Positions 9,406 through 42,116 of a stretch of 64,000 nucleotides of DNA are shown one piece after another. A program made the translations under genes and the position numbers. The notes below the pieces were generated by a model. It ran no database searches, was not told the origin of the DNA, and saw only the letters and a list, made by a program, of their open reading frames with translations. The stretch's first letter is position 1; each line of letters begins with the position of its first letter. The stretch lies in IMG/VR virus record IMGVR_UViG_3300037493_001906, positions 32,001 to 96,000 of that record. One strand, given 5' to 3'. Origin of the DNA: a virus.

Positions 9406-12400
9406 TTATCCTTGCTCGTCATCAAATGTAGCTCCAGCAGTAGGATAACCTTGAACAGTTGATTTATCTTGTTTATATTGAGCATATGCATCATTTGGAA
9501 CTTTACCTGCATCAATCATCATTAAGAGTTTAACTGCATTATTAAGATCAGCAGCACTAGCTGTTGCTAATTGAGGATTACCTTGAATAGCTTCTCTAAC
9601 ATAATCTTGATAAGTTTTTCTAACTGAGTCAGATGGTTTAAAACTTCTTGGATCATGGAACACTAATGAACCACCTCTTGAAGGATCAACAGCAAATTGT
9701 GGATATAATGAATTAAGTGATGCTGTATTTGCTCTATTAGTTATAGCTTGAACATAATTATTAACTAAAGTATTTTTAGCTTGTCTTTTAGAGTTATCAA
9801 ATAATTGATTTGCTATTGTATTCTTATCATATAATCCTGTTTGTTCCTGAGCTCTGATTGCAGCAGCTTGATTCATTAAAGCTGCATTTTCTCTAGAAAA
9901 TGTATTTGCTAAATTAACATTAAGATTATTTACTCTACCTAATGTATTAGCTGCTTGTTCAGCTGCTTTTCCTTGCATTTCTCCATATCTAGAATTAAAT
10001 GCTTGAGGTCCAGTAAAAGATGATAATGCTTGAGCACCTATATTTAATTGTTCTGCATTCTCAGCTAGTTCTCTTTCAGGAGAAAAATATGTTGGTGTAG
10101 GAGTATACACAGGGGTAGTAGCTTGCCAAGGACTATATTTATTAATAGTAGCATAATCAGATGCAGCATTAGCTGTTTTTATAATATCTTGTAACCACCA
10201 AGCTGGATTAGGATTGGCTCTTTGTAATTGATTAAGATGAGAAACTTTAGTTGTATCTGGTTCACCTGTTGTAGTTGTAGTAGCAGGACCAGCTGTAGTA
10301 GTTGGTTGTTGTTCTTTTTGCTGAGCTTTTTCAATTTTTAATTTTTTGAGATCAGCTAAATATTGTTTTGTTCTACGTCCAAATAAACCTTCTGCGTTTT
10401 CTTCTAAATCATATTTTTTTAAACCTTTATTAACTCCATATGTAGTTTTTTGTGGGTCAGCTGAAATAATTTTTCTAGCTCTATTAGGAAGATACTCATG
10501 ATATTTTCTTTGAAAAAGTTGTGTCTTAGGACTATACTTATTTGAATCACCTGCTGATTCTTTTTCAGCTTCTTCATATAATTTTACAAGTTCATTGTAC
10601 TTTTCTTCAGGTAATACATTTTCTGTTTCTTCAAAATCACCTATTGAATCATCTTCATATACTGGTCTAATCTTATCTTCTGATGGACTATACTGATATT
10701 TTTTAATTTTCTTGGTACCTCCAACTTGAAAATAATCATCTATGGCACCACCATATTTTTTAATTACTTGTACGTCATCTGAACCAGATCTATCAGTAGT
10801 AATAGGAACAGCCTTTTGTTGAACTACAGGTTCATTATTTTGTGTAGTTGCCTCTGCTGTTCTTGCAGCTTCCTGACCTTGATTAGTAGCTTCTAAAGCT
10901 TGTCTAAGTGATTGTCTTTCTGCTTCAGCTTTTGCATCTGCAGCTCTTTTTATCCTTATAGCTTCTTCCTGTTCTGAAATAGTTTGTAGATTTTTATTAG
11001 CTTGTTCCCTAAGTGCATTATTTTCTTGACTATTTTGACTACCTCTTGTTTGACCAGTAAGATTAGCTGCTACATTTATGCCACCAATAGTTTTACCTAA
11101 TCCAGTACCTAATAAGTAAGATTCATTTAATACATCTTTAAGTTCTGATGCTGGTTTTACTGCTTGTCTCGCAGCACTTGAAGCTTTCATTCTAGTTACA
11201 ATAGGTGTTGCAGAAACTTTAACTGCTTGTTTTTCTGCTGTATTGATTGCAGCTTTAGCAGCTGCAACATTTGATCTTGTAGCTGGTGCACCTGTTTTAT
11301 AAAGAACTTGACCTACTTTACTTTTTTCAGTCATATTAGTTATATCTTTTGCTTCCTTAGAAAGTTTACCAGCAAGTTTAGATTTTTTAATAATAGCAGC
11401 ATGTTCCAATGCAAGCTCAGCAGCTGATTTACCAATATTAGTTGCAACATGTTTACCCGTTGTTCTAGCAGATATTTCAGCTGCTTTTTTTGCAACAGCT
11501 TTATATCCCATTGAACCAAGTTTAGCAATTGCTTCAGGACCAAGTAATGCAAGATTCACTGGGTCTAAAAGTAAATCAGTTAAAAAAGCACCTGTTCCAG
11601 ATTGTATACCCATAGCTTCACTTGGTGTTCTCCAGTTTTGATAATTACTTAAAAAGTCACCAGGATGCATAAGTTGACTTGGATTTGCAACAGCTTCTGT
11701 TATCATTCTTTGAGGTGCACTTAATGCTTTACCTGTTTGTTCTAATGCACTTCCAATCCAATCACCAAGTTGTGCTTTAGGTAATCCTCCATAAGCCATT
11801 TCATATTGGTCAAACATGCCTCCATGTTTACGTACTTGTAATTGCTGTAGGACACCGCCATAAGCAGCAGTCATATTATCACCTTCACTTGTTTCATCAT
11901 CTCCTTCACCAGGATTTATTTGAACAAATTCAGATGGATCAATTTGCATTGATTCTAAATATGGTGTTGCTATAGAAGGGATGCCTTGAGGAAAACCTTT
12001 TTTAGATTCTTGAATAAGACCTAACTTAGCAAGTTTAAGATTGTAGTTAGCAATCATTTGCTCAGCAGTACTTCTTTGAAGATCATCAGTATCTGGATCT
12101 GCAAGTACTTTTTTATATTTATTTATATTATATTTCTTAGCAATATCTGCAGGAGTATATCCACCTTTTTTTTCAGACATACCAAATTGAGCTAAGATAG
12201 CTGGATCTTTAATCCTCATCTTAGCTGTATCACTAAATATAAAAGAGTCATCAGGAAGATTTAAAGGTGTGCCTCCTTCATAATGTCTTTTGCCTCCAAT
12301 TTTAAAAGTATCAGGAATACCACCTGCTCCAGGAGTCATTGCTACTTCACCTCTTTCAGCTTCAAGATTTGCTTCATTTCTTGGTACTGGACCAATAGTT

Positions 12401-12558
12401 GAATTTACATCTACATCAGGTGCTGACATTTTACCTGCCATAATTGGCCAAGGCATAACATTGGAATTGAAACCAAGACCTGCTCTAAGACCTTGCAACT
12501 TTACTTCTGCCCCTGATTTAAGATTAGGCATTCTGGTTATTCTAACTTTTCTTTTCAT
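9406..12558 (-). CDS. Cargo protein (crAss001 C1/gp45-like), 1050 aa
   Basis: EAERGEV...GGKRHYEGGTPLNLPDDSFIFSD N-terminal motif of the type seen in crAss-like cargo protein 1; helical Ala/Gln-rich C-terminus. Confidence 0.7.
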   Translation of the reverse strand: MKRKVRITRMPNLKSGAEVKLQGLRAGLGFNSNVMPWPIMAGKMSAPDVDVNSTIGPVPRNEANLEAERGEVAMTPGAGGIPDTFKIGGKRHYEGGTPLNLPDDSFIFSDTAKMRIKDPAILAQFGMSEKKGGYTPADIAKKYNINKYKKVLADPDTDDLQRSTAEQMIANYNLKLAKLGLIQESKKGFPQGIPSIATPYLESMQIDPSEFVQINPGEGDDETSEGDNMTAAYGGVLQQLQVRKHGGMFDQYEMAYGGLPKAQLGDWIGSALEQTGKALSAPQRMITEAVANPSQLMHPGDFLSNYQNWRTPSEAMGIQSGTGAFLTDLLLDPVNLALLGPEAIAKLGSMGYKAVAKKAAEISARTTGKHVATNIGKSAAELALEHAAIIKKSKLAGKLSKEAKDITNMTEKSKVGQVLYKTGAPATRSNVAAAKAAINTAEKQAVKVSATPIVTRMKASSAARQAVKPASELKDVLNESYLLGTGLGKTIGGINVAANLTGQTRGSQNSQENNALREQANKNLQTISEQEEAIRIKRAADAKAEAERQSLRQALEATNQGQEAARTAEATTQNNEPVVQQKAVPITTDRSGSDDVQVIKKYGGAIDDYFQVGGTKKIKKYQYSPSEDKIRPVYEDDSIGDFEETENVLPEEKYNELVKLYEEAEKESAGDSNKYSPKTQLFQRKYHEYLPNRARKIISADPQKTTYGVNKGLKKYDLEENAEGLFGRRTKQYLADLKKLKIEKAQQKEQQPTTTAGPATTTTTGEPDTTKVSHLNQLQRANPNPAWWLQDIIKTANAASDYATINKYSPWQATTPVYTPTPTYFSPERELAENAEQLNIGAQALSSFTGPQAFNSRYGEMQGKAAEQAANTLGRVNNLNVNLANTFSRENAALMNQAAAIRAQEQTGLYDKNTIANQLFDNSKRQAKNTLVNNYVQAITNRANTASLNSLYPQFAVDPSRGGSLVFHDPRSFKPSDSVRKTYQDYVREAIQGNPQLATASAADLNNAVKLLMMIDAGKVPNDAYAQYKQDKSTVQGYPTAGATFDDEQG

Positions 12559-12563
12559 ATTAA

Positions 12564-15227
12564 TTAGTCTAAGTATTCTATTTGTCCTCCGTTAGCAAGT
12601 ATATTTTGTATTTCATCTTCTGATAATTCATATACATCATCTTGATCAACATCACCACCTTCAGCATATTGACCACCATACCTTGATACATATGAAGGTG
12701 TTATACCTGCCATTGTTCCTGTTGTATATGCATCAGGTGTAAGTGTTCCTGTACCCATGCCAGTAAATACATAATCACCTCTATCAGGTTGTTGCCAAGC
12801 AAGAAACTGATTATCTGCTAAAGTATTCTTTTTTATTTTTTGTTGTATATCATAATTTTCATTAGCATTTGCAAAACCTGTTAATGCATTAGTACCTGCC
12901 ATAATCCAGTTTGCTAATGGTTCACCTGTAATACCTAATTTCTTTTTACCTTTAAGGCTCCAGTCAAAATATTTAGAATCAGGAGATTTACCACTCAATG
13001 GTTCAGGATTGGTTTTAAATTGATCTCCTGTTAGTTGTCCTTGAGGAGCACCAAATGTACCAACTGCAGTAGGAGTTGGTTGATTACCACCCCATGCGTC
13101 TGCATAACCATATCCACTAATAGTATTAGGTCCATTAATAGTATTAGTATTAGTATTTGCTGGAGCTTTATAATGTGGTACTGCATTTTTTTTCCAGGTT
13201 TCAGCAGGAGATTCTGACCAATTTGCATATGGAGCACCTTCACTTTGTGTTGCATATGGTGCACCAACTTGACTATTATACATTTGTGCTTTAGGAAGAC
13301 CACCTAATTTTTTAGTTTGTAAATATGGTGGGACAAGTGTATTATAAACAGGCATACCTGCTGTTCCTGTTGGTTTAGCAATACCTGCTGGTATATTATA
13401 TGGAGTAGGATGTGCTGAAGGAATTGGAGCTGCTTGAGCTGGTTGAGTTTGATCACTCATTTTTGTTCCTTCAAATTCAATTGGATCTAAATGAGATCTA
13501 AACTTGTAAGTTACACTTTTAGGGCCTTTATTAAACAATCTGCCAAGACCAGTACTCATCTTTTCTTCTCTTGATAAGAGATGTGTATCTGATGGATTAT
13601 ACTTAGAAAGTAATTCACTCCAGTTAGCAGAAGTGCCTGTATTACCTCTTGCCTTCCATTTAATATAAGGAGAATAGTTTGTAGGAAAATATCTTAATCC
13701 TTGAGAATCATATTCTCCTTGATTAGAAGTATATTGATTATATCCTTGTTGTTGACCTTGTTGTTGATCTTGAGGTATATCTAATGTTTTCCACTCACCT
13801 GTACGTGGATCATAGAAAGTAGATTTATTTTTTTGACCATAATTAGCTTGAGCAGCTTTAGTTGCTTTATCAATATAATCTTGATATTGTTTATCATAAT
13901 CATTTTTATATTGTAATGAATAAGGACCTTTTTGACCAGTAATTAATCCTACTTGTGCATGTGGAATAAAGTTATTATAAATATCTTGAGTTGTACTACC
14001 AAAATCTTTCCAAGCATTTTTTCTTTGATCATCATATCCTTGAGCTTGATTTATTAAAGCTAATTGATTTTGTGCAGTTGCAGGATTATAATCATTGTAT
14101 GGATTCTGAGTATTATCACTTCCTACTGAAGTACCATATTGAGCATAAGCAGTTTGTTGTTCTTCTTGTTCAGTTTGATAAGTAGGATTATTAAAATATT
14201 CTGGTATTACTGATTGTATATGTTGTTGAGCTTCTTGTTGTGCTTCTTTTTGTAAATTAACTAAAGCATTATTTTGAAGATTAGATACAAAAGCATTACG
14301 GTATTGTTCAAGATAATCATCTTGACTATCTCCATCTGCTGAACCACCCTTTTGTTTTCTAGATAATTTCTTTACACCACCTTGTTTAAGATAAGTATTA
14401 CCCATTCCTACATTACCACCATATTGATTAGCTGATCCATCTGAGCTACCACCATCTTGCATATAACCACCACAGTTCATACAAGGCATGTCATTAGCTC
14501 CATCTGGTAATCCTCCACCTACATTATAACTAGGAACATATGGAGTGTGAGCATGTATCCAAGCATCTACTGGTTGCTGAGGAAAAGCAATCTCATCAGT
14601 TAATCCACCTTCTTCATAAAATCCAAAAGGAGTATTAGGTTTCCACCCACTATTATAAAAATGATTAGCAGTAGGCTGTTGAGGAAAAGCTACTTCATCT
14701 GTGTATCCACCATAAGCCATTTGAGGACCTTCCATTTGTTCTTCTTCAGGACCTTGTTGTTGCATAGGTTCTTGAGCTTCTTGCTCTGGAGATTCTTGTG
14801 GTTCACCTTGTGCTTGTTGAGGAGAAGGATGTTGTTGTAGATACTGTATTGTAGTTTGTAATATCTTAGTAGCTTGATCTTGAGGTACACCCATCTTTAC
14901 AAGTTCTTGTAGTATTTGTTGAGGCTGGGCACCTTGTTGAAGTTGTTGAGCAATTTTAGCCATCAACTGTTGCATTTGTGCATCTTGTTGATTTCCTCCA
15001 TCTTGATAAAAACCAAAGGGAACATTGGGTCTAAAACCTTCTGAGTAAAATTTATTGGCTGTCGGTTGTTGTGGAAAACCTACTTCATTAGTAAGTCCAC
15101 CCATTGCCATTTGTTTACCATATTTTGCCATAAAGACTTGTTCATCAGGATATTGACTATAAAAAGATTTTCTACCTTGTGGGGTATCAGGAAATCCTGC
15201 TGCCTTTAACATTTGTGCTGCTGTCAT
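12564..15227 (-). CDS. Gln-rich virion cargo-like protein with FPQQP repeats and xxGG motifs, 887 aa
   Basis: Long low-complexity ORF with three E(V/I)xFPQQP repeats. Confidence 0.65.
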   Translation of the reverse strand: MTAAQMLKAAGFPDTPQGRKSFYSQYPDEQVFMAKYGKQMAMGGLTNEVGFPQQPTANKFYSEGFRPNVPFGFYQDGGNQQDAQMQQLMAKIAQQLQQGAQPQQILQELVKMGVPQDQATKILQTTIQYLQQHPSPQQAQGEPQESPEQEAQEPMQQQGPEEEQMEGPQMAYGGYTDEVAFPQQPTANHFYNSGWKPNTPFGFYEEGGLTDEIAFPQQPVDAWIHAHTPYVPSYNVGGGLPDGANDMPCMNCGGYMQDGGSSDGSANQYGGNVGMGNTYLKQGGVKKLSRKQKGGSADGDSQDDYLEQYRNAFVSNLQNNALVNLQKEAQQEAQQHIQSVIPEYFNNPTYQTEQEEQQTAYAQYGTSVGSDNTQNPYNDYNPATAQNQLALINQAQGYDDQRKNAWKDFGSTTQDIYNNFIPHAQVGLITGQKGPYSLQYKNDYDKQYQDYIDKATKAAQANYGQKNKSTFYDPRTGEWKTLDIPQDQQQGQQQGYNQYTSNQGEYDSQGLRYFPTNYSPYIKWKARGNTGTSANWSELLSKYNPSDTHLLSREEKMSTGLGRLFNKGPKSVTYKFRSHLDPIEFEGTKMSDQTQPAQAAPIPSAHPTPYNIPAGIAKPTGTAGMPVYNTLVPPYLQTKKLGGLPKAQMYNSQVGAPYATQSEGAPYANWSESPAETWKKNAVPHYKAPANTNTNTINGPNTISGYGYADAWGGNQPTPTAVGTFGAPQGQLTGDQFKTNPEPLSGKSPDSKYFDWSLKGKKKLGITGEPLANWIMAGTNALTGFANANENYDIQQKIKKNTLADNQFLAWQQPDRGDYVFTGMGTGTLTPDAYTTGTMAGITPSYVSRYGGQYAEGGDVDQDDVYELSEDEIQNILANGGQIEYLD

Positions 15228-15279
15228 GTGATATATTTTATGCTACTAATTTACAAATTTATTTTTAAACATTATAAGT

Positions 15280-18200
15280 TTATTCATATTTACTAAGCCA
15301 TCCTATAGATCCACCTAATTTTTTAGTAGGTATGGCTAAACCTGCACCTGTTTTTTTATTAGTGTTAAAATCATACCAGGTCTTATTATTAAGCTTTCCA
15401 TTTTTACTTCCTGGTTTAGCAGAATAACTACCTAAATCATGATAAGTAATAATTAAATCATCAGGTTTTATTTTATAGTCTTTTATAATTTGTTCTGCTT
15501 GACTTTTAATTTGAGTTAAACTTCCTGCAAAATCAATTGCAAGATTTTTACCATCTATTAAATAAGTAACAGATCCTCCTCCAAATTTACCATAAGCATC
15601 TTTACCTAAACCTTTAGCAAATATAAAAAATGTATTCTGTTTATCTTTTGTTTGTAAAGTAGAAATGGAACTATTAAATCCTACAGGTTGAGCAGCACTA
15701 TTCCAATCAATATCAGTAAATCTATATTGTCGTAATTCATCAGCAATTTTATCTCCCTTGGTTATTTCACTTTCTTTTTTATATTTTATATTTACTTTAC
15801 CATCTGGTTTTTTTGTATATGTAGTATAATAAGGATCTTTAACAGTACTACCAGGATTGTTTGCTTTATGATTTTTTAAAGAAGAAGGAATAACACTTCC
15901 ATCTTTATTATATTTAATATTTTTATGCATAACAAATGTTGCACTATTTTTTTCATCTTCTAGTGCTTTATCTTTTGTTATATCATAATCATATAAAAAG
16001 TGTGCAATTCCAGCAACATTGTTATATTCAGATTCACTATCTAATCTTGCTGTAGGAATATAATCAAAACCTTTATCATTATCAAATACATTTATATATG
16101 AAATATATCCTTCCTTGGTTCTACTTAATTCTTTATATTGTGGAGTAACATTAATTTTATTATTTTTTGATTGTGTTGTATTTTGTGCAGTATTTTGTAC
16201 TGTTGTTACAACTTTATTTTGTACCTTCTCTGTTGCTTTATCTTTAGAAGCATCACCTGCTCCATACTTAATCCAAGCTCTATCTATAATTGCAGGAATA
16301 GATTCAATATTTTTATTTACTGTATTTAATATTTCACCTGATTCTTTTTGAGCATATTCTAATCCAGAAATAATATTGTCTAATATTGATGGTTCTGAAA
16401 CATTAATTGTTGAAGTAACCTTTTTAGGTGTAGTTTTAACAGTAGATTGAGGTTGAGATTTTACTGGTGTAGGAGCTGGTGTATTAGTTTTTGGAACAAC
16501 AACTTTTGTTTGTGTTACAGGTTTAACTACAGGCTTAGTTGATACAGGTGGTGTAGTAGGTTTTACTACAGGTTTAACAGTAGGCTTAACTACTGGTTGG
16601 GTTGGTGCAGTTACTCTTACTACTGGCTTTTCTGCAGGCTGTTCTACAACAACAGTTTTTTTCCTTAATATTGGAGCTTTCTTTCTTACTAAAGGTGTAG
16701 GTTCTATTACATCTTCTTTAATAGGTCTTGCTTCTATTCTTGGAATCAAAGTCATATCAGGATCTCTTACTACAACTGGCTCTGGTGTTTTAGCAGAATT
16801 TTTATAAGCCCATGATGTATCTAAATCTGGTGTTCTTTGATCTGAAGGTCTTCCTGCTGCTATTGGATTTTTAGAACTACCATATACAGTAGGATCAAGA
16901 TATACTTTACCATCTTGACCCATATAAGAACCTCCACCTTGATAAGTATCTAACCAACCACCTAATTTTTTGTCAGGAACAAGATAGTCAGGACCTATTT
17001 CTTCACTTCTTAAATACTCTCTTCCTTCTGGAGATTCTGCTGCTCTTGCTTCTCCTTCTGCTGTCCAAAAAGAACCATACATATCAGGATTAACTTGATA
17101 ATTATATACAGCTTCTGGATCTGCAAATTGAAAAGATGGATTGTCCATTAAAAATTGATTAGTTAATTCTTCTTGATCTACCATCCTTCTATTAAAATAA
17201 GGATAGTCAGCATCTACTTCAGTTATAGCAGGAGCTTTTCTAGCTAAACCATAAGGATCATATTCTGGTATTCTTAATCTACCTGCTAGAGCTTGTTGTC
17301 TATGATATAACTCATGTATCATATCTTTGTCACCTCTGTCTTTACTTAAGTATATAGTATCAGATTGAGGTTCATATGATGCATTACCTTCTTGGTCTCT
17401 TATTATAAAAGGACCACCACCTTGATAAATAGGACCATCTGTTTTACCACCTGGTCCAAATTTATCTATTGTACCACCATAAGCTTTTTTATTTTTAGAT
17501 TGATAATCTAGTAAGGCAGCTTTAGTTTCATTTCCATATATACCATCATATGTACCATATTTATTAGTAGATTTAGGTAATTTATATCCTCTATTACTTA
17601 ATTCTTTTTGTAATGCTTGTGTATCAAAATCTTTTTTATTAGAATCTAAAGCAGATAATTCTTTGTTTGTATAATAAACTTTATTATAGTTTGCTTTTCT
17701 TCCCAAAGAAAAAATTTCATCCTGTATTGAAGATATATCTTCATAGTTTTTTTGTGATAAGGTATTAAGTTTTTCCCAGGACATACCATTTGGTGTAGTA
17801 GTATTGTCTAAATGCTTATAATATTCTTTTTGTATTTTATTTAATTTATCAAGTTTTATTTTATTTTTTTCTAATTGATTTTTTATTTCTATATTATCAT
17901 TATAATATATTCTATCATAGACCTCATAAGGTTTTCCTATCCCCATAGAAATATCTTCTGTCTTAAAATTAAAGTTTGAATATCTTCCTTTATATGGATT
18001 TAAATCATAAGTGTCATAATAAGAAAAATATTTTCCTCGTTTATCTTCTCCTCTATTTACTGTAAATTGACCAAGAATACCTGAATCATCAGTCATTTGA
18101 AAACTACCTTTATGTTTAGATGCTTCTTTTAATAAGTTTTCAGTAAAAAAGTCATCTTGAATATTATAATATATTGGGGTATTATTAGTTTTTGTAATTG

Positions 18201-19680
18201 TTGGTTTATACTTAGATACTCCAAAAGTATTACCTTTTTGGGGTTTTCCTAAATATAAATTCAAAGCATCATCACCAGAAGGATCATAATATTTTAAACC
18301 ATTATCTTGCAAACCTTTTTCAGAATTATTATTAACAACAGCATTTAAAACTCTTTTTACAGGCTCTAAAATATTTCCATCTCCTGTTATATACTCATTC
18401 TTTATATTTTTAGAAATCCTATCTCTTACAAAATTATTTGGTAATAGTTGTTGATTAGTAATTCCTGTTTCTTTTAATTGTTGTGCAGGAGTACCAGCAT
18501 AATTAGTATTAAATCTTTGATTATTATACATAAACTCTTTTTCTCCTGCTTTTCTTGCAGCACTAAAAGCTTGCCCTTTTGTTTTATATTTAGAATAATC
18601 TTCTACTCCCCAGTTATAAGGATTTATCCAACTAGGTATAAATTCACCTAACTGAGCTTTAGGTAGAGAAATGTCACCACCATAAGCTTTATTAGAAGTA
18701 TCATAAATAAGTTCACCAATTTCTGTAGCAAGAACTCCTCTATTTGCATTTAAAGCTTTTTTTACAACAGGATTAGTTATAAACTTTGATAGTCCAAATC
18801 TTTGTGCGGTAAGAGGAAAATAAAATCCAGATTTAGATACTGCAGGACTACCAATGTTTGCTAGTGTTTGTGCAAATGTATTTGGTGTTACATTAGCAAT
18901 TGCTCTTTTATAACCTTGACTAGCTAAAGCACTTCCCAAACCAACACCAGTTAGATTGCCAACCATACTATTATAATCTTTGTCTTTATAGTTATAGTAT
19001 GCTTGATCTGCATCAACAGCAGCACCTAATGTATTTCCTAACCAACCAATTCCTTGAGCAATTGGATGTGGTATAAATTGACCAAGTTGCATTATATCTG
19101 TAGCAATATCTAATGGATATAATATATTTTTTTGTATATTTTTTGTATAAATTTCAGATTTTGCATCTTGATTTATTAAATCTTGTAATTCTTTAGTTCT
19201 ATTGTAGGGGCCAACAAAAGTTTGATTATTATGCAGACGTATATCTTTATCTCTTTGTTCTATTTGACGTACTTTATTTTCTATATTAGTATTTGTTTTA
19301 TCTTTTTTAATTATATATCCTGGTTGAGCTTTAGGTAAATTATCTAGCCATCCTCCATTTTTAGCAACAGGTGTTTCTTTAACATAGGGAGTGCCCATAT
19401 TATGCATACCTGAATAAGGAGGAAGATATTGCCCATTAGCCATTAATGGTATCCCAGTCTGAGACATATCTATCATACCTGTTGGAGTATGAATGTCAAT
19501 AGAAGATCTATCTCTGTATGGTGAGTCATCTCTATAACCCATCATACTAAGTTCATCATCAAAAGCATTTAACCAATCTTCAGTAGAAGAGTGACCAATG
19601 ACTTTCTTTTTATCTTTAGGTATACTCTTATTAGATTTTGCATTCCTAAAATCTTCTGAAAATTGATTTTTATTTCCCAT
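15280..19680 (-). CDS. Modular (polyvalent-like) virion protein with a peptidoglycan-binding-like domain and an HExxH motif, 1466 aa
   Basis: ALQKELSNRGY...DGIYGNETKAALLDYQ resembles PG_binding_1. HELYH lies at 17302-17316. Modules are separated by K-x-x-GG linkers. Confidence 0.7.
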   Translation of the reverse strand: MGNKNQFSEDFRNAKSNKSIPKDKKKVIGHSSTEDWLNAFDDELSMMGYRDDSPYRDRSSIDIHTPTGMIDMSQTGIPLMANGQYLPPYSGMHNMGTPYVKETPVAKNGGWLDNLPKAQPGYIIKKDKTNTNIENKVRQIEQRDKDIRLHNNQTFVGPYNRTKELQDLINQDAKSEIYTKNIQKNILYPLDIATDIMQLGQFIPHPIAQGIGWLGNTLGAAVDADQAYYNYKDKDYNSMVGNLTGVGLGSALASQGYKRAIANVTPNTFAQTLANIGSPAVSKSGFYFPLTAQRFGLSKFITNPVVKKALNANRGVLATEIGELIYDTSNKAYGGDISLPKAQLGEFIPSWINPYNWGVEDYSKYKTKGQAFSAARKAGEKEFMYNNQRFNTNYAGTPAQQLKETGITNQQLLPNNFVRDRISKNIKNEYITGDGNILEPVKRVLNAVVNNNSEKGLQDNGLKYYDPSGDDALNLYLGKPQKGNTFGVSKYKPTITKTNNTPIYYNIQDDFFTENLLKEASKHKGSFQMTDDSGILGQFTVNRGEDKRGKYFSYYDTYDLNPYKGRYSNFNFKTEDISMGIGKPYEVYDRIYYNDNIEIKNQLEKNKIKLDKLNKIQKEYYKHLDNTTTPNGMSWEKLNTLSQKNYEDISSIQDEIFSLGRKANYNKVYYTNKELSALDSNKKDFDTQALQKELSNRGYKLPKSTNKYGTYDGIYGNETKAALLDYQSKNKKAYGGTIDKFGPGGKTDGPIYQGGGPFIIRDQEGNASYEPQSDTIYLSKDRGDKDMIHELYHRQQALAGRLRIPEYDPYGLARKAPAITEVDADYPYFNRRMVDQEELTNQFLMDNPSFQFADPEAVYNYQVNPDMYGSFWTAEGEARAAESPEGREYLRSEEIGPDYLVPDKKLGGWLDTYQGGGSYMGQDGKVYLDPTVYGSSKNPIAAGRPSDQRTPDLDTSWAYKNSAKTPEPVVVRDPDMTLIPRIEARPIKEDVIEPTPLVRKKAPILRKKTVVVEQPAEKPVVRVTAPTQPVVKPTVKPVVKPTTPPVSTKPVVKPVTQTKVVVPKTNTPAPTPVKSQPQSTVKTTPKKVTSTINVSEPSILDNIISGLEYAQKESGEILNTVNKNIESIPAIIDRAWIKYGAGDASKDKATEKVQNKVVTTVQNTAQNTTQSKNNKINVTPQYKELSRTKEGYISYINVFDNDKGFDYIPTARLDSESEYNNVAGIAHFLYDYDITKDKALEDEKNSATFVMHKNIKYNKDGSVIPSSLKNHKANNPGSTVKDPYYTTYTKKPDGKVNIKYKKESEITKGDKIADELRQYRFTDIDWNSAAQPVGFNSSISTLQTKDKQNTFFIFAKGLGKDAYGKFGGGSVTYLIDGKNLAIDFAGSLTQIKSQAEQIIKDYKIKPDDLIITYHDLGSYSAKPGSKNGKLNNKTWYDFNTNKKTGAGLAIPTKKLGGSIGWLSKYE

Positions 19681-19681
19681 A

Positions 19682-25212: not shown

Positions 25213-25680
25213 TTATTTATGTTTTACAATATATTCAATTGCTTTAAGCATAATATTTATATTATCTTTAAATTTTCCAATACCTGTATTACAATTATCA
25301 CATAAAAAACCTCTAATTTTTTTAGTATTGTGACAATGATCTAATGAAAGATCTTTTTTTTGTGATGAGTTATGTTCACCACAAATGGCACAATAGCCGT
25401 TGTAAAAATCATAAAGTTTTTTATATTCTTGTTTAGTAATTTTTATACCCTGTTTTTTATAAGAAGACATTTTAACCCCTAATTTAAATTTTTCAGGATT
25501 TTGTTTTCTATAAATACTTGACTTTATTTTATTTTTTTCTAAATTTTTTGGAAGTTTAGCTCTTTTTTTTGCATCTTCATTTTTACAAAATTTGCAATGA
25601 GACGCATATCCAGACTTGTTTCTAGGTTCAACTCCAAATAAAGAAACCTCTTTATTTATTTTACATTTTGTACAAATCAT
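25213..25680 (-). mobile_element. Free-standing homing endonuclease, endonuclease VII family, 155 aa
   Basis: CAICG...LSLDHCHNTKKIRGFLCDNCNTGIGKFKD motif plus N-terminal CxxC motifs; inserted in the structural operon. Confidence 0.85.
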
Positions 25681-32820: not shown

Positions 32821-32842
32821 TTTATGTTGGTTTTGTTGGTTA

Positions 32843-33403: not shown

Positions 33404-33431
33404 TTTGCAAATATAATGAAATTATTAAATG

Positions 33432-33477
33432 AAAAAAGGGAGAGGAGAGACTTTTGACTCTCACTCTCCCACTTTTT
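33432..33477 (-). terminator. Rho-independent terminator
   Basis: Minus strand GGGAGAGTGAGAG-loop-CTCTCCTCTCCC followed by TTTTTT. Confidence 0.8.
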
Positions 33478-33496
33478 CAAATTGAATTTGTAATTA

Positions 33497-35200: not shown

Positions 35201-35260
35201 TTTTTTTTTTTAAATTAAGTTAAACAATAAACAAATATATATAGGTATTAATATAATAAA

Positions 35261-35701
35261 TTATTTTAAGAATAGCAACTTATATTTTGTAGAATTTATT
35301 AAAGATTTTATTTCATCTATAGTATTTTGAATTTCTGAGTGACTACATGCTTCATGTACCATCTCAGCTAAGTCATATAATCCTCTTAAATACTTAATAC
35401 AATCCTCTGCAGTTTTCATTGTAGGTAGGTTTACTGAAGTAGGAAATGTAAGTAGCTTCTCAGTTACTCCTTGATACTGTTCTATTAAGTCATCAGCTAG
35501 GTCTCCAGCAGCATCATAAAATCCTCCCATTGCTGTGTGTGCAGCATATGATCCTACACCAGTAACAAGCAAATGATTAAGATGCACTTTAGTTACTCCA
35601 TTAAGTAATTCAAAACCTAATGTTGCAATATGTTTTGAGTGATCACCTTTTGAACTTGTTTCTACCCCAGATTTAAGAGGTCTTTGAACGTATTCTGCCA
35701 T
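35261..35701 (-). CDS. Ferritin/Dps-like four-helix protein (DUF5856-like), 146 aa
   Basis: HLNH...YAAHTAMGGFYD...DDLIEQYQG...SEIQNTIDEIKSLINSTKYKL pattern. Confidence 0.7.
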   Translation of the reverse strand: MAEYVQRPLKSGVETSSKGDHSKHIATLGFELLNGVTKVHLNHLLVTGVGSYAAHTAMGGFYDAAGDLADDLIEQYQGVTEKLLTFPTSVNLPTMKTAEDCIKYLRGLYDLAEMVHEACSHSEIQNTIDEIKSLINSTKYKLLFLK

Positions 35702-35706
35702 TTTAT

Positions 35707-36414: not shown

Positions 36415-36418
36415 TTAA

Positions 36419-36664
36419 TTAGCATTTCCATTTTTTTCTTGCAAGCCTTAATCTACTATTAGGATCTTTAGCTGCCTTGGGGAACATTTTCATTTGACCT
36501 GCAGATCTAGCACAAAAAGATTTTTTTCTAGAACCACCTTCAGGCTGTGGAGCTTTAAGGTGTGATCCAGGATTAGCATTATTATAAGATGCTCTGCCTT
36601 TTGCATTAAGTCCACCAGAAGGAGACTTACCCTCTTTTCTTTGCCAAGCAGCAGTCTTTGCCAT
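36419..36664 (-). CDS. Small basic protein, 81 aa
   Basis: AWQRKEGKSPSGGLNAKGRASY...RKKSFCARS; a type I recall from environmental phages (unverified). Confidence 0.75.
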   Translation of the reverse strand: MAKTAAWQRKEGKSPSGGLNAKGRASYNNANPGSHLKAPQPEGGSRKKSFCARSAGQMKMFPKAAKDPNSRLRLARKKWKC

Positions 36665-36786
36665 TACTTTTTCTTTTTAGAATTAGACTTCTTCATGTTA
36701 CGTCCTATATTCATACCTACTTGAAAAGATTTTTTAACCTTTTCTCCACATGCTGACTTCTTTGTATTTTTACTAGATGTTGCCAT
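36664..36786 (-). CDS. Lys-rich micro-protein, 40 aa (MATSSKNTKKSACGEKVKKSFQVG...)
   Basis: Translated by hand; TAATG overlap with the next gene. Confidence 0.65.
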   Translation of the reverse strand: MATSSKNTKKSACGEKVKKSFQVGMNIGRNMKKSNSKKKK

Positions 36787-36808
36787 ATTATTTTTTTTAG
36801 CTTTCACA

Positions 36809-37417
36809 TTAACCATTAGTCTCAGTTGTATCTGTTGTAGTAGTATCTGTAGTTCCTGACTCTGTAGTAGTATCAGTTGTTGTATCTGTAGAAGTAGTTG
36901 TAGCTTCTTCAGTAGTTACTTCAGCAGCAGGTTCAGTTGTAGTCTCTGCAGTTGTAGTAGTTTCTTCTACAACAGCAGTTTCTTCAATTGTAGCAGTTGG
37001 TTCAACTACAGTCTCTTCTACTACAGCAGTAGCTTCTTCTGTAGAAATTGAATCTCCAAATGAATCAATAGGAATTGAGGTTGTTGATTCCTCTGTAACT
37101 ACAGGAGTTTCTTCAACTATAGGTGTTTCAACAACTGATGCTTCTTCTACAACTTGTATTACTTCTTCAACACCAACTACAGGAAGACCTGAAGTTGCTT
37201 GATTACTCATAACATTTACATTGAATAAAAGATCACTAATAATAGCAATACTCAAGTTAGGTTCTTCAATACTCTGATGAATTGACAATTGTTTAGTTTT
37301 AGTTAAAACTTCAATTGATGATTCTTCCTTAATATCATAAGAAATAGTATAGAGAATGTTTTCACCAGATGTTACTCTATCTGCAGACTCTGTATAGTTT
37401 ATAAGTTTATATGCCAT
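36809..37417 (-). CDS. Acidic Thr/Glu-rich low-complexity protein (likely start MAYKL, 202 aa)
   Basis: C-terminal half almost entirely E/T/V/A; the ORF-track start at 37450 overlaps the upstream gene. Confidence 0.7.
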   Translation of the reverse strand: MAYKLINYTESADRVTSGENILYTISYDIKEESSIEVLTKTKQLSIHQSIEEPNLSIAIISDLLFNVNVMSNQATSGLPVVGVEEVIQVVEEASVVETPIVEETPVVTEESTTSIPIDSFGDSISTEEATAVVEETVVEPTATIEETAVVEETTTTAETTTEPAAEVTTEEATTTSTDTTTDTTTESGTTDTTTTDTTETNG

Positions 37418-37418
37418 T

Positions 37419-37637
37419 TTAACAAGATTTTTTTGATTTAACCATTCCACCTTTTTTCATTGCAGGTGAAACTAATTTTGCAGGTTTAGGAGCAGCTCCA
37501 GGATATTTTGAATAATCCTTTACATCTATATCCTTATAAGGTTTACCAGAAAATGAACTTCCTCCAAATTGTTTTTTCTTAAGATCATTAAGATCATTAA
37601 AATGCTTAAGAGGATTTGTTGTAGTTTTTAATTTCAT
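37419..37637 (-). CDS. Small basic protein with QFGG and MKKGG motifs, 72 aa
   Basis: From the ORF track; tightly packed with its neighbours. Confidence 0.7.
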   Translation of the reverse strand: MKLKTTTNPLKHFNDLNDLKKKQFGGSSFSGKPYKDIDVKDYSKYPGAAPKPAKLVSPAMKKGGMVKSKKSC

Positions 37638-37639
37638 TG

Positions 37640-37786
37640 TTATTTAGATTTAGCCATTTTTTTAAATGTCCTGGCAAGAGCTTTTCTTTTAGGAGTACAA
37701 GTTTTTTTGGTTTCTGGAGTACAAAAACCTTTATGTTTAGGATTTACTGCTTTTTGTATCCACTTTTTGTCTGACTTAGCTGCCAT
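37640..37786 (-). CDS. Lys-rich micro-protein, 48 aa (MAAKSDKKWIQKAVNPKHKGFCTP...)
   Basis: Translated by hand; fills the gap exactly, with a TAATG junction. Confidence 0.75.
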   Translation of the reverse strand: MAAKSDKKWIQKAVNPKHKGFCTPETKKTCTPKRKALARTFKKMAKSK

Positions 37787-38100
37787 TATTTTTTAGATTT
37801 AGACTTAATTTTAGACTTAACTGCTCCACCTGTTTTACGTAAAGGTTTACCTTCATATATTTTACCAGTACTTCTTTCTGCAGCTCTAACTCCCCATTCC
37901 ATTGGTTTTGCTATACCAGCCCACATAGCTGCTCTAACAGGAGCCTTCAGTACTCTATCAAACATATTTTCAGACTTTGGACCTAAAATATCTTTAGCAT
38001 CCATAACATTATATGTTCCTGGTTTTCTAGTTGCTTTAACTGCAGGAGTAGATTTTACAACTTTTCCTGTTTGAGCTTTTTTTAATATTTTCTTTGCCAT
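37786..38100 (-). CDS. Small basic protein with KKAQTG and RKTGG motifs, 104 aa
   Basis: From the ORF track. Confidence 0.7.
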   Translation of the reverse strand: MAKKILKKAQTGKVVKSTPAVKATRKPGTYNVMDAKDILGPKSENMFDRVLKAPVRAAMWAGIAKPMEWGVRAAERSTGKIYEGKPLRKTGGAVKSKIKSKSKK

Positions 38101-38102
38101 TA

Positions 38103-38279
38103 TTATTTCTTTTTTGTAGGTTTTACAATAGTACTAAGACTATTAAGAGATTTAGTTATACCTCCCATTAAAAATTTATCTTTCTTAATTTCTTCAGCAC
38201 GCTGCAAAGTTCTCATTGCATCACTGATTTCCCAAGACCTATCAATTTTAGGAGAAGCTATTTTTACTTTCTTTGCCAT
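38103..38279 (-). CDS. Basic micro-protein, 58 aa (MAKKVKIASPKIDRSWEISDAMRTLQRAEEIKKD...)
   Basis: Translated by hand; preceded by TATATTATAGT. Confidence 0.7.
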   Translation of the reverse strand: MAKKVKIASPKIDRSWEISDAMRTLQRAEEIKKDKFLMGGITKSLNSLSTIVKPTKKK

Positions 38280-38303
38280 ACTATAATATAGTTAAAATAA
38301 ATG

Positions 38304-38346
38304 ATTCTGCCAAAACTACAAAATAATTTAATAGTCTTGGCAGAAT
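38304..38346 (-). terminator. Terminator-like hairpin inside the micro-protein cluster
   Basis: 15-bp arms ATTCTGCCAA(A/G)ACTA / TAGT(C/T)TTGGCAGAAT with T-rich flanks on both strands. Confidence 0.7.
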
Positions 38347-38353
38347 TTTAATT

Positions 38354-38521
38354 TTATTTTCCCTTAACTTTTTTAAGTCTTGGGTTTTTAGCTTTTGCAG
38401 CAGAAGAAGCTTTACGTGAACTAGAAGCTAAGATTGCCCCTGCGGCCTCTTTGCTAATACCCTGTTTGCTTGCAATGCTGGCCTGGACGGCCTTAAAGCC
38501 TGGGTGTTTTTTACTTGCCAC
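38354..38521 (-). CDS. Basic micro-protein, 55 aa, GTG start (MASKKHPGFKAVQASIASKQGISKEAAGAILASSSRK...)
   Basis: Translated by hand; locally higher GC than its neighbours. Confidence 0.75.
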   Translation of the reverse strand: MASKKHPGFKAVQASIASKQGISKEAAGAILASSSRKASSAAKAKNPRLKKVKGK

Positions 38522-38552
38522 TTTGGTTTTAATTTTTTATTACAATTACACA

Positions 38553-38681
38553 TTATCTTCCTTGTCTATTGTATTTCTTATAACCTAATTTTTCTTTAGG
38601 ACCAAGTTTTTTCTTAGCCTTCCCAGTTTTACGTACACCAAAAGAACTCTTTTTAGTTGAACCTTTATCTACTCTAGCCAT
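38553..38681 (-). CDS. Basic micro-protein, 42 aa (MARVDKGSTKKSSFGVRKTGKAKKKLGPKEK...)
   Basis: Translated by hand. Confidence 0.7.
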   Translation of the reverse strand: MARVDKGSTKKSSFGVRKTGKAKKKLGPKEKLGYKKYNRQGR

Positions 38682-38683
38682 GG

Positions 38684-38986
38684 TTATTTCTTTTTAGCTT
38701 TAATTGTACCACCTTTTTTAAAGGTAGGAGTTTCTCTTTTTACTCTAGATTTTACATTAGGACTAGAAATTTTTGGTCCTTCTGGAGCAACAGCAGTAAC
38801 ATAGCCTTTTTGTATTTTTGATACTCTAGGACTGCCAGTAATAAAACCTTTAAGTGTTCTTTTTACTTTACTTTCATAATCACCTTCACTATTCTGTTTT
38901 GTAACAGTTTTATATTTACCATCTGCTGATTTAACAGAAGTAGAAGATGTGCCACCTATTTGTTTCTTTAATAACTTTTTAGCCAT
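38684..38986 (-). CDS. Small basic protein with KKQIGG and FKKGG motifs, 100 aa
   Basis: From the ORF track. Confidence 0.7.
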   Translation of the reverse strand: MAKKLLKKQIGGTSSTSVKSADGKYKTVTKQNSEGDYESKVKRTLKGFITGSPRVSKIQKGYVTAVAPEGPKISSPNVKSRVKRETPTFKKGGTIKAKKK

Positions 38987-39156
38987 TATTTTTTCAATTT
39001 ACCAGTTGGCACATCACAAGCAGCTTTATTAAGACCACCTGTATAACGTGTAGGATTAGTTACTACTGTAGGATAAGTGTTTTTACCACCAGTATATTTA
39101 GTAGGATTAGTTACCACTTCAGGGAACTTGTTTGAATTTTTTAGTGTACCAGCCAT
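38986..39156 (-). CDS. Micro-protein with a duplicated VVTNPT(K/R)YTGG repeat, 56 aa
   Basis: Translated by hand; TAATG junction. Confidence 0.7.
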   Translation of the reverse strand: MAGTLKNSNKFPEVVTNPTKYTGGKNTYPTVVTNPTRYTGGLNKAACDVPTGKLKK

Positions 39157-39172
39157 TTTATTTAGTTTTTAG

Positions 39173-40186: not shown

Positions 40187-40199
40187 TTTAGTTTAGATT

Positions 40200-40222
40200 T
40201 GGTTGGTTATTAGACTGACATA
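40200..40222 (-). promoter_or_regulatory. Leader motif TATGTCAGTC-TAAT-AACCAACCA, copy 1
   Basis: Near-identical to 43407-43430; lies just upstream of the ATG at 40186. Confidence 0.55.
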
Positions 40223-40228
40223 TTTAGT

Positions 40229-40259
40229 GAAAATTGGGGAGAGCTTTCACCCCCTCCCC
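40229..40259 (-). terminator. Terminator after the major capsid gene
   Basis: Minus strand GGGGAG(GG)-gtgaaag-(CT)CTCCCC followed by AATTTT. Confidence 0.65.
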
Positions 40260-40294
40260 TATTCCACTTGCCCTACACGATGCAGGGACTTTGA

Positions 40295-41923
40295 TTAGAA
40301 TGATCCACCAGTGATTGGGTTTCTCATAACAATTTTCAATACCTTAGTAGGATCTTTCACCCAAATTGCAGGCATTGTTTGAGTCATCATGACACGGTAT
40401 CCATTGAACTGACCAGAGCTTTGGAAGCCTTGTGTACGTCCCATGTAATCCATTGTACCATTTTGATACCACCATTTTAGTTGATTATCCCAAGATAATT
40501 TTAGCATGAAGATATTATCATTACCAGTGTCAGTGATGTCAAAGATAATGAAGCTATAAGATGACAAAGGATTACCATCAATGATTGGGTTTTCAATGTC
40601 ATTTGTATGCAAGTTATCAAAAGCTGGGTTAAGAACAAACTTAACATTAGCTAAGAAAGGAATAACATAACTTGTGAACGCAAATCCAAAGTTAAGATCC
40701 ATTGCACTTGTACCATTGATAGCACCAATACCAGCGTTGCTAGCAGCTTGAATAACAAGACCTGAGTTAGCAGCTTCACGTTTGATAGCCTCATTTACAA
40801 GACGCATACCACCCATACCTGTTTGTACAATCAATTGACGTTTTGGATCTGGTCCTTGAAATTCAACCCTACCTGCGTAGAAGTTATAAATTTCAGAGCG
40901 GAACAATTCCAAGTTGAAGTTAGATTTGTTGTATACTCTTTTGAAAGAGTTATCCAACTGTTTCCAAAGACCCACAGATAAACGCATATCATCTGGACCA
41001 TCTTGCTTAATACGTCCACCATGTCCCCACATCAAGTAGGTTTCAATGTCAGTAGCAATTTTAGTCAAGTGAGCAGCTTCCATAGAAGTAAGGAAAGTTC
41101 TGGTTAAAGTACCATTACCTACTGCACGCTTCAAATAGTCTTTACCCATTTTAGAAGCAATGTCTTCAATTTTAGTGATTGAAGGATCTAGAGTTTTATC
41201 AAAGTTTCTCCAGATTTCAGTTACAGGAACTGTACCATCTGCATTCATACCACCTTTGATCATCATGTCAGCTTTAGAGCTGATAGAATAATGTACGTGA
41301 GCTTCAGCACCACCTACAAAGTTGTAGAATTCACGGAATCCAGCTCTTGTCTGAATATCAGAAAATCTTTCACCATATTCACCTCTTGCAGAACCTTTTC
41401 TGAAAAGTTTGGTTTGTGGTTTAATGTATTTGTTATCAAGAAACTTGTAGTTATCATTGTTAACCAACTGTACTGTGTAGATGAAACCATCTCCCATAGG
41501 AAGAATATCATCAGCAGTAATGTACATCTCCACACCATTGTATTTGTCATAAGTGATAATATCACCATGTCCAAATTCACGTTTGTTGATTTTGATCTTG
41601 AAGGTTGTACCATCAATACCTTTTTGTTGATTAGTTGATTCAATGTCTTCAAGGATATAAGGAAGATCCTGGCTAACAGGGGTCTGCCATTTATACTCAC
41701 CACGGGCATTGTCTACCATGATAATGTTTTTGCCACCAAAGGATGACAATTGATACAAAGGCATTTCTACCTTTTGTGTCATAGCCCAAATATCTACTGG
41801 ACCCAAATCCATGGGTTCAGAGTCTTTAAGCATGTTTACTAAGTGGTAAGAATCCACGTGTGAACTAGCATTGTAGTTCGTATCACGAAGGAGTATACCA
41901 TTGTTTAAAACTGGAGTGCTCAT
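40295..41923 (-). CDS. Major capsid protein (crAss-like), 542 aa
   Basis: Follows portal and scaffold, strongly optimised codons, terminator downstream; LFRKGSARGEYGERFSDI and TQTMPAIWVKDPTK motifs. Confidence 0.85.
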   Translation of the reverse strand: MSTPVLNNGILLRDTNYNASSHVDSYHLVNMLKDSEPMDLGPVDIWAMTQKVEMPLYQLSSFGGKNIIMVDNARGEYKWQTPVSQDLPYILEDIESTNQQKGIDGTTFKIKINKREFGHGDIITYDKYNGVEMYITADDILPMGDGFIYTVQLVNNDNYKFLDNKYIKPQTKLFRKGSARGEYGERFSDIQTRAGFREFYNFVGGAEAHVHYSISSKADMMIKGGMNADGTVPVTEIWRNFDKTLDPSITKIEDIASKMGKDYLKRAVGNGTLTRTFLTSMEAAHLTKIATDIETYLMWGHGGRIKQDGPDDMRLSVGLWKQLDNSFKRVYNKSNFNLELFRSEIYNFYAGRVEFQGPDPKRQLIVQTGMGGMRLVNEAIKREAANSGLVIQAASNAGIGAINGTSAMDLNFGFAFTSYVIPFLANVKFVLNPAFDNLHTNDIENPIIDGNPLSSYSFIIFDITDTGNDNIFMLKLSWDNQLKWWYQNGTMDYMGRTQGFQSSGQFNGYRVMMTQTMPAIWVKDPTKVLKIVMRNPITGGSF

Positions 41924-41963
41924 TCTTTTTTAAAATTTAGTTATTAATTAATTGATTAGTTAT

Positions 41964-42116
41964 TTATTTTTTTACTGCTCCACCTTTTTTCATAGGAGGT
42001 TTAGCTGTTTTACTTTTTTTTGTAGCAGTTTTAGATGTTTCTTCTTTTTTTGCCCATGGTGGTACCCATTTACCACCTTTTGCTGCAGCAGCAGCTTTCT
42101 TTTTTGGAGTTGCCAT
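41964..42116 (-). CDS. Lys/Ala-rich micro-protein, 50 aa (MATPKKKAAAAAKGGKWVPPW...PMKKGGAVKK)
   Basis: Translated by hand; lies between scaffold and MCP. The + strand ORF 41952..42158 is its antisense shadow. Confidence 0.75.
   Translation of the reverse strand: MATPKKKAAAAAKGGKWVPPWAKKEETSKTATKKSKTAKPPMKKGGAVKK

Follow-up and report, generated by a model that had tools for sequence, protein, structure and literature searches.

A diglycine-based peptide motif delimits cargo modules and caps micro-proteins in a crassvirus-like phage

The stretch of DNA examined here (the 'window', 64,000 nucleotides) corresponds to positions 32001-96000 of a 118,098-bp viral genome, IMG/VR record IMGVR_UViG_3300037493_001906, and represents the virion module of a crassvirus-like phage, encoded on the minus strand. 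We describe a short peptide motif, built around paired glycines (GG) and the word LPKAQxG, that is found in three large proteins of this module and in tiny basic proteins encoded near the gene for the major capsid protein (MCP). We find this motif to be genuine, conserved and specific, and to delimit modules of the large proteins and cap the micro-proteins. It is also a boundary marker of independently shuffling modules and of points of gene fusion and fission. This last property is the most informative one, and it was missed in an earlier sequence-only reading of the same DNA. The motif is probably a virion-loading or processing signal.

Organization of the cargo block

Genes on the minus strand are ordered as follows: TerL, a homing endonuclease, the portal, a 418-aa protein in scaffold position, a 50-aa basic open reading frame (ORF) and the MCP, then a 337-aa protein, ten basic micro-ORFs, ring proteins, an HNH endonuclease and the muzzle protein. 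After the muzzle gene come the genes for proteins of 1466, 887 and 1050 aa, and these are followed by giants of 988, 1604 and 3947 aa. The muzzle protein matches PF25731 (crAss_MUZ) with 79.9 bits against a cutoff of 27, as well as the virion structural protein family phrog_37948, and the position of its gene defines the genes downstream as the cargo block. In crAss001, the muzzle gene (gp44) precedes the cargo genes C1 (gp45) and C2 (gp46), which are followed by RNA-polymerase-associated giants (PMC10172136). Because the motif-bearing trio likewise lies directly downstream of the muzzle gene, the word 'cargo' used in the sequence-only reading fits by position. The features of the trio and of its upstream neighbour are as follows.

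19682-25132, minus strand: muzzle protein, 1816 aa
15280-19680, minus strand: cargo protein 1, 1466 aa, with five modules separated by the motif
19318-19365, minus strand: linker 1 of cargo 1, AKNGG-WLDN-LPKAQPG, residues 106-121
18646-18693, minus strand: linker 2 of cargo 1, NKAYGG-DIS-LPKAQLG, residues 330-345
17413-17490, minus strand: linker 3 of cargo 1, KKAYGG..FGPGG..YQGGG, residues 731-756, directly after the peptidoglycan (PG)-binding domain (PG_binding_1, residues 687-730)
17000-17400, minus strand: HELYH (HExxH) module of cargo 1, residues ~760-900, with GG linkers on both sides
16930-16974, minus strand: linker 4 of cargo 1, DKKLGG-WLDT-YQGGG, residues 903-917
15283-15327, minus strand: C-terminal tail of cargo 1, TKKLGG-SIGWLSKYE, residues 1452-1466
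12564-15227, minus strand: cargo protein 2, 887 aa, rich in Q, G and Y, with 16 GG sites
14604-15116, minus strand: repeated MA[MY]GG..FY[QE][DE]GG units of cargo 2
13278-13316, minus strand: TKKLGG-LPKAQMY of cargo 2
12567-12599, minus strand: C-terminal LANGGQIEYLD of cargo 2
9406-12558, minus strand: cargo protein 3, 1050 aa, with a folded N-terminal domain at residues 50-214
11764-11871, minus strand: motif cluster TAAYGG / VRKHGG / EMAYGG-LPKAQLG of cargo 3, disordered, after the N-terminal domain
10717-10764, minus strand: second site of cargo 3, IKKYGG..YFQVGG, where relatives split the gene

All of the instances that had been quoted from these three proteins are present in the genes named, and the position at which the region was said to begin (10718) corresponds to the second site of cargo 3.

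Statistical support for the motif

An unbiased k-mer count of the 64-protein window proteome returned LPKAQ as the top 5-mer, with 4 copies in 3 proteins, and KKLGG (3 copies) and AYGG (5 copies) were also high-ranking words. Enrichment relative to shuffled controls, a check that the sequence-only reading had proposed, is pronounced in the cargo trio. Compared with composition-preserving shuffles made within each protein, there are 10 matches to [KRMA][KAQM][YLFMI]GG (0.24 in shuffles), 6 to [YF][QEAK][DEQVGN]GG (0.22), 4 to PKA[QL] (0.14) and 39 to GG alone (23.4), and the counts for all four patterns were reached by 0 of 200 shuffles. These trio counts are partly circular because the regular expressions were derived from the data after the instances had been seen. 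Circularity does not affect the ranking of k-mers, the absence of matches in other proteins or the conservation among relatives described below. Specifically, the 128 proteins encoded elsewhere in the genome (33,124 aa, including the MCP, portal, TerL, rings and muzzle) yield 0, 0 and 0 matches to the three specific patterns, in agreement with the initial impression that the motif does not occur in the MCP, portal, TerL or tail proteins. The C-terminus of the MCP, ..NPITGGSF, does carry GG two residues before its end, where the motif context is not matched.

One might attribute such a pattern to chance, compositional bias or recent paralogy, given that cargo 2 is rich in G, Q and Y and contains internal repeats (MA[MY]GG..FPQQP..FY[QE][DE]GG occurs twice), and that the micro-proteins are rich in K. 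However, the shuffles preserve composition and never reach the observed counts, the motif occupies orthologous positions in distant relatives, and codons differ between copies. This explanation is largely refuted, and we regard it as essentially excluded. The four LPKAQ copies are encoded by different synonymous codons, which indicates that the repeat is held at the protein level by selection on the peptide, and a repeat maintained at the DNA level is thereby ruled out.

Certain known signals were also considered and rejected. A sortase LPXTG signal does not apply, since L-P-K-A-Q-x-G lacks the Thr and is not followed by a transmembrane (TM) segment, and the patterns of RTX repeats (GGxGxD) and of retropepsins (D[TS]G) are unmet or absent. 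Literature searches with the motif words LPKAQ, GGWLD and YGGLPKA gave unrelated matches only.

Conservation at module boundaries

Relatives of this locus were taken from IMG/VR (loci L001 and L005-L013), whose cargo proteins are 34-72% identical to those of the window. In these loci, the motif is confined to the same 2-4 proteins encoded between the muzzle gene and the gene for a conserved protein of ~930-1100 aa, and it was found nowhere else in them. The density of GG per 1000 residues is 10.4 in cargo-block proteins versus 4.3 in their neighbours. The full consensus reads Φ-GG-(x0-8)-W-L-D-x-Φ-[LIV]-P-K-A-Q-x-G, with the shorter forms YGG-LPKAQxG and GG-x(4-7)-[YF]xxGG, and peptide forms include GGWLDNLPKAQPG, C-terminal GG..WLDxY tails and KKGG followed by a basic tail. 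An exact-pattern scan of IMG/VR for GG-WLD-xx-PKAQ recovered one further contig only, and thus the motif is too degenerate for exact scanning.

Homologues of cargo 1 are mosaics with YkuD, SLT, LysM, lysozyme, Gly-zipper, PG_binding or DUF6321 domains, and the breakpoints of this mosaic fall at the motif. In BLAST comparisons with cargo 1, 51 of the 94 internal endpoints of high-scoring segment pairs (HSPs) lie within 12 residues of a motif versus 13% expected, where neither the endpoints nor the IMG/VR loci are all phylogenetically independent. Homology to P0003 and L006 ends at residues 113-121, in linker 1, and many HSPs begin at residues 338-352, at linker 2. Other HSPs end at residues 733-755 (linker 3) or 913-917 (linker 4). 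The GG..WL[DS]x[YL] C-terminus is common to most cargo-1 homologues. AlphaFold2 (AF2) models place the motif at domain edges as well. The PG-binding domain (residues 667-731) has a predicted local distance difference test (pLDDT) score of 77-88, which falls to ~30 exactly at the KKAYGG of linker 3, and in cargo 3 the N-terminal domain (residues 50-214, pLDDT 75-91) is followed by the motif cluster at <45. An alignment of cargo-3 N-termini shows the conserved domain, an acidic stretch, an invariant RYGG and xKAQxG, after which the sequences become unalignable.

Gene fusions and fissions occur at the same positions. Cargo 1 and cargo 2 are fused as a 2362-aa protein in L005, and cargo 3 is split in L007, L008 and L011 where the window carries IKKYGG..YFQVGG. 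At split junctions, the upstream cargo-1 proteins end in GG-x(0-8)-WL[DS]x[YL]x and cargo-2 proteins in GGx[IV]EYLD, so that a tail of 5-9 residues (WLDxY or xIEYLD) extends beyond the GG, and the next protein opens with basic residues ahead of a [LIV]PxAxSG or KAQxG-like word. The form taken by these downstream halves is MAKKLxKAQxG in micro-proteins and a weaker xPxAxSG in cargo 3. Overall, 12 of 30 cargo-block proteins have GG within the last 12 residues versus 0 of 38 other proteins.

We had considered whether modules always carry such caps, and this can be ruled out. Free-standing homologues of the module at residues 346-735 exist in unrelated phage types, where they end at the PG-binding domain, and the motif is absent both from them and from their neighbours. 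It follows that the motif is a property of the crass-like cargo context and does not come with the modules as such.

These observations are partly consistent with a passive structural hinge, in which GG flanks a short amphipathic turn, each module can fold by itself, remain partly unfolded in the head and pass through the tail in the N-to-C direction, and the linker has spread as recombination between linkers shuffled the modules. Linkers are predicted to be disordered, and many PG-acting modules (YkuD, SLT, LysM, lysozyme, PG_binding) have been exchanged between the same linkers. However, a hinge explains neither the conservation of W-L-D and L-P-K-A-Q at 34-72% identity with turnover of synonymous codons, nor the presence of the motif at protein C-termini. 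We judge this explanation unlikely, and the micro-proteins described below add to its difficulties.

Additional features of the cargo proteins were observed. Cargo proteins of L005 (2905-9993) and L007 (1885-7152) carry Cys4 zinc-ribbon-like words (CPSCGWSWK..CHKCGG) between GG linkers, and cargo 2 of the window retains a counterpart, MPCMNCGGYMQDGG, at 14448-14477. Residues 50-190 of cargo 3 (window 12000-12420) form a strongly conserved GGKRHxxGGTPLNLPxxSFIFSD domain that is recognisable in L001, L002 and Leptolyngbya phage Lbo-JY46. This domain briefly resembles the portal-bound domain of gp45 (NEGGSHEENP..YDDYVFSD), a likeness that is non-significant by BLAST or fold search. The AF2 model of cargo 3 residues 1-300 gave no specific match in the PDB, crAss001 gp45 included, with Foldseek and VIA-align.

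Micro-proteins near the MCP gene

Tiny basic proteins formed the second class in which the motif had been noted, and the quoted instances are again present. The micro-ORFs are predicted genes, judged by strand, packing and the recurrence of the class in relatives.

41964-42116, minus strand: 50-aa basic micro-protein with AAAKGG and PMKKGG-AVKK, between the scaffold-position and MCP genes
36419-39156, minus strand: cassette of ten basic micro-proteins, 42-104 aa
37419-37637, minus strand: micro-protein with KKKQFGG and AMKKGG-MVKSKKSC
37786-38100, minus strand: micro-protein with MAKKILKKAQTG and LRKTGG-AVKSK..
38684-38986, minus strand: micro-protein with MAKKLLKKQIGG and TFKKGG-TIKAKKK

Among the 11 micro-proteins, [KR][KTNH]GG occurs 4 times versus 0.39 in shuffles, and GG 12 times versus 4.5. 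Homologues of the motif-bearing members were found in just 0-8 of 80 related loci. The cassettes of relatives are hypervariable, yet their unrelated micro-proteins begin with MAKKLxKAQxG (e.g. MAKKLAKAQFG), MKKLAKKQxGG or MKKPVKKLPKAQDG, and end with [KM]xGG (KKxGG, for example) plus 4-7 mostly basic residues. The proposal that both protein classes share the motif thus extends beyond this genome. Considering all 235 micro-protein clusters, 70 have GG in the last 16 residues (17.5 ± 3.7 when shuffled), where its position peaks sharply at 4-7 residues before the end, and 26 have N-terminal motifs (5.2 in shuffles). The word KA[QE]xG is found 9 times (1.05 in shuffles). That the same words cap unrelated, single-module proteins is left unexplained by a hinge.

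The best conserved micro-protein is basic, 81 aa in length (window 36419-36664) and present in 33 of 80 loci. It is the likely source of the single DUF6321 match (PF19846, E = 9e-19). In P0012 and P0099, cargo-type proteins carry the DUF6321 micro-protein domain as a C-terminal fusion. Taken together, the shared termini and the DUF6321 fusions indicate that the link between giant cargo and micro-proteins is real.

Related words in crAss001 gp45 and the possibility of a protease

The crAss001 cargo protein gp45 contains four A[YF]GG words (at residues 210, 333, 428 and 563) where 0.10 are expected, a count reached by 0 of 2000 shuffles. It also has two GGWL words, one of which (FGGWLNTQGG) resembles linker 4, and its C-terminus reads KAKGGKVRTKKKK... 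Elsewhere in the Crassvirales, [LC]GG followed by basic residues forms the C-terminus of p-crAssphage gp47 and gp48 and of crAss002 gp30, and the C1 proteins of DAC17 and IAS virus carry ΦGG[YFIL]L..GGG words. These looser ΦGG motifs are also what a hinge would lead one to expect. Alignments of gp45 homologues by tblastn tend to stop at GG sites as well. Direct homology to gp45 was not detected: by BLASTP, cargo 1 and cargo 3 match it only over motif lengths and with E > 0.4 (at least 0.48), and phmmer against PDB chains gave no gp45 match. The LPKAQxG half was not seen in the Crassvirales proteins examined, of which crAss001 gp45 was checked directly, and it appears to be specific to the window's lineage.

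The ordered pieces of gp45 in the crAss001 cryo-electron microscopy (cryo-EM) maps are residues 214-245 in the tail barrel and 425-552 at the portal wing (PMC10172136). The first starts 4 residues after AYGG (207-210) and the second at AFGG (425-428), such that the portal-bound domain opens with FGGWLNTQGG (425-435) as its ordered N-terminal edge.

This arrangement bears on the possibility that the motifs are polyprotein processing sites, where a phage or host protease would cut at or near the GG/KAQxG linkers, free the modules and trim the leaders and tails of micro-proteins, much as GG-specific viral proteases (adenain, pS273R of African swine fever virus) or T4 gp21 on CTS leaders would do. 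Both resolved segments of gp45 start at or no more than 4 residues after A[YF]GG, as might be expected of cleavage products. Moreover, the motifs coincide exactly with module boundaries and with the points of gene fusion and fission, they place small residues (GG, xG) in disordered linkers, and the micro-proteins carry propeptide-like extensions, namely basic N-terminal leaders of 8-15 residues that close with GG and, at the C-terminus, GG with a further 4-7 residues. Potential enzymes are also encoded. HExxH modules are present in cargo-1 proteins (HELYH in the window, others in L007, L011 and L008), and a 402-aa protein encoded outside the window at genome 3012-4220 on the plus strand (L097:3012-4220) is metallopeptidase-like, with DUF2201_N, a VWA-like DUF2201 and a weak PhageMetallopep match. 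The HELYH module and this DUF2201_N protein are the only peptidase-like genes found in the genome.

However, HExxH modules are not universal among the relatives, and the AF2 confidence for that of the window is too low to classify its fold. No S77, S78, S49, ClpP, C5, C48 or C39-type family, and no gp21-like protease, occurs among the 99 proteins scanned with Pfam (38 of the structural block and 61 others). Likewise, no clan CE or CA peptidase was seen in the Pfam scans, which covered some of the giant proteins and of the shortest ORFs, and the enzyme may be novel or supplied by the host. Tandem sites spaced 6-12 residues apart would release tiny peptides, and a long conserved tail beyond the GG is unexpected in a leaving group. 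In addition, FGGWL is ordered in the gp45 map, and the crAss001 authors report peptides from the region between the two ordered pieces and model gp45 as one continuous chain through the portal (PMC10172136). In the accessible part of the supplement text for the 2018 crAss001 gel and MALDI analysis, no band assignment is given for gp45, and our literature search on crassvirus cargo processing returned the structural atlas and one review only.

We therefore hold proteolytic processing to be a possible but doubtful explanation. The original suggestion had been a capsid-targeting tag or a cleavage site. The observation behind it is supported, in that the motif is restricted to cargo and micro-proteins, whereas a role as either tag or cleavage site is putative, and no canonical prohead protease or GG-specific protease was found to go with it.

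Other features of the virion module

Several neighbouring genes were assigned by family matches, and the positions of additional genes of interest are included below.

46980-49184, minus strand: TerL, PHROGs family match
46292-46978: homing endonuclease gene, between the portal and TerL genes
43519-46290, minus strand: portal, PHROGs family match
42135-43391, minus strand: 418-aa protein in scaffold position
40295-41923, minus strand: MCP, PHROGs family match
35261-35701: Dps/starvation-inducible-regulator-like protein within the structural block (phrog_858; a DUF5856 match is probably the same protein)
25213-25680: HNH/endonuclease VII-like gene, between the ring and muzzle genes

The ring proteins, encoded on the minus strand, match PF24228 and PF25702, and a Bac_DNA_binding (HU/IHF) match was obtained among the structural-block proteins. 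Both mobile endonucleases sit within the virion operon, as in crAss001. At least 596 IMG/VR contigs encode an MCP with 84-94% identity, which indicates a very abundant environmental lineage. Rates of change differ among the protein classes, with cargo proteins far below this level of identity and micro-proteins mostly unalignable. Judged by the portal protein, the nearest phage in culture is Lbo-JY46, a Leptolyngbya phage, at 34%.

A docking or loading signal as the favoured interpretation

Over protease sites, we tentatively favour the interpretation that proteins are docked or loaded by means of the motif as a shared signal. The motif would serve as a recognition peptide common to all cargo units, and a common internal virion partner (the portal wing, scaffold or capsid interior) would capture these units through it during procapsid assembly. 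This would amount to a multivalent code for docking or loading, to which the T4 capsid-targeting sequence (CTS) and encapsulin cargo-loading peptides offer analogies. The flanking glycines would free each module to fold, and to unfold during ejection, and cleavage may or may not come after docking.

Docking is favoured because the motif is confined to the cargo block and micro-proteins and is absent from 33 kaa of other proteins, and because it is conserved at 34-72% identity while its flanks diverge. Furthermore, mosaic breakpoints fall at the motifs, which lie in low-pLDDT linkers at domain edges, and the termini of micro-proteins are conserved while their interiors are hypervariable and DUF6321 is fused to cargo-type proteins. 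The enrichment of A[YF]GG in gp45, with FGGWL ordered at the portal-bound domain, points in the same direction. Finally, conservation for 5-9 residues past the GG is more readily explained by a peptide that binds than by a P' side that is thrown away.

Some considerations weigh against this interpretation and should be kept in mind. The common docking partner is hypothetical, and one tag per protein suffices for targeting, so that a tag at every boundary is not required. The free-standing homologues of module 346-735 lack the motif, and so this module does not depend on it for a function of its own. Cargo tails are acidic or hydrophobic and micro-protein tails are basic, and hence there may be two signals and not one. 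The micro-proteins, for their part, are predicted virion components.

In a bolder version, all injected proteins would be sorted to the cargo zones of the head or tail by a transplantable bipartite code (ΦGG..WLDxΦ / LPKAQxG within and at the ends of the giant ejection proteins, and [KM]xGG with a basic tail on the micro-proteins), and this code may also direct processing by a non-canonical protease. We consider this version speculative and somewhat unlikely. Such a code may constitute a T4-CTS-like system hitherto undescribed for Crassvirales, in which the micro-proteins may be a protamine-like hypervariable arsenal.

Implications

The structural atlas of crAss001 raises the question of how ~5 MDa of cargo protein is selected for the capsid and tail, and how its ejection is ordered (PMC10172136). 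A peptide that is present at every cargo module boundary and is shared with fast-evolving basic micro-proteins offers a concrete, mutable handle on cargo selection. Sharing of the motif predicts that the micro-proteins are injected internal proteins, possibly with anti-defence or DNA-condensing roles like those of the T4 internal proteins (IPs). The existing crAss001 maps and mass spectrometry data are worth re-examining at the A[YF]GG sites of gp45. Even if the motif is only a linker, it should still be a useful marker for delimiting modules in giant proteins that are otherwise unannotatable, and if a sorting code is true, foreign proteins could be loaded into the virions of crassviruses by means of it.

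Comparison with known systems

Among characterized phages, a close parallel is crAss001 C1 (gp45), with which the window cargo shares its gene position directly after the muzzle gene. Gly-zipper or TM-like segments are present in gp45 and its homologues, as in the window cargo, and the C-terminal [KC]xGG plus basic tail of Crassvirales C1 proteins is like the tails of the window micro-proteins. In contrast to crAss001 C1, the window spreads the functions across three genes totalling 3,403 aa.

The T4 CTS is a strictly N-terminal peptide of ~10 residues on the internal proteins IPI, IPII and IPIII and on Alt, which acts through the scaffolding core and is cut by the prohead protease gp21 at L/I-x-E. 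The T4 analogy drawn in the sequence-only reading holds in that a short terminal peptide is common to small, basic, hypervariable proteins and to larger, putatively injected ones, and in that the cassette is plastic. A conserved signal on hypervariable small basic proteins is what we find in the micro-protein cassettes of the 80 loci, for which a virion location is predicted. The analogy fails in that the window motif is bipartite and GG/KAQxG-based, and occurs inside proteins and at either terminus.

Among systems directed by GG, the adenovirus protease cuts (M/I/L)XGG|X on the basic core proteins pVII and pX, and others include pS273R of African swine fever virus and the double-glycine leaders cut by C39 peptidases. 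The likeness lies in GG words both at the ends of small basic DNA-associated proteins and within large structural precursors. However, a logo of 290 GG sites shows Y, M or F at -3 and Y at -1, and this preference for hydrophobic residues at -1 and -3, and not at P4, differs from the adenain consensus.

Encapsulin loading peptides are short, Gly-containing and usually C-terminal, and they dock cargo inside an HK97-fold shell. They can be transplanted between unrelated cargos, and the window motif would resemble them as a putative docking peptide, but it differs in its sequence and in its context, which here is a tailed phage. With these likenesses and differences considered, the motif is best described as a virion cargo signal of a crassvirus-type variety.

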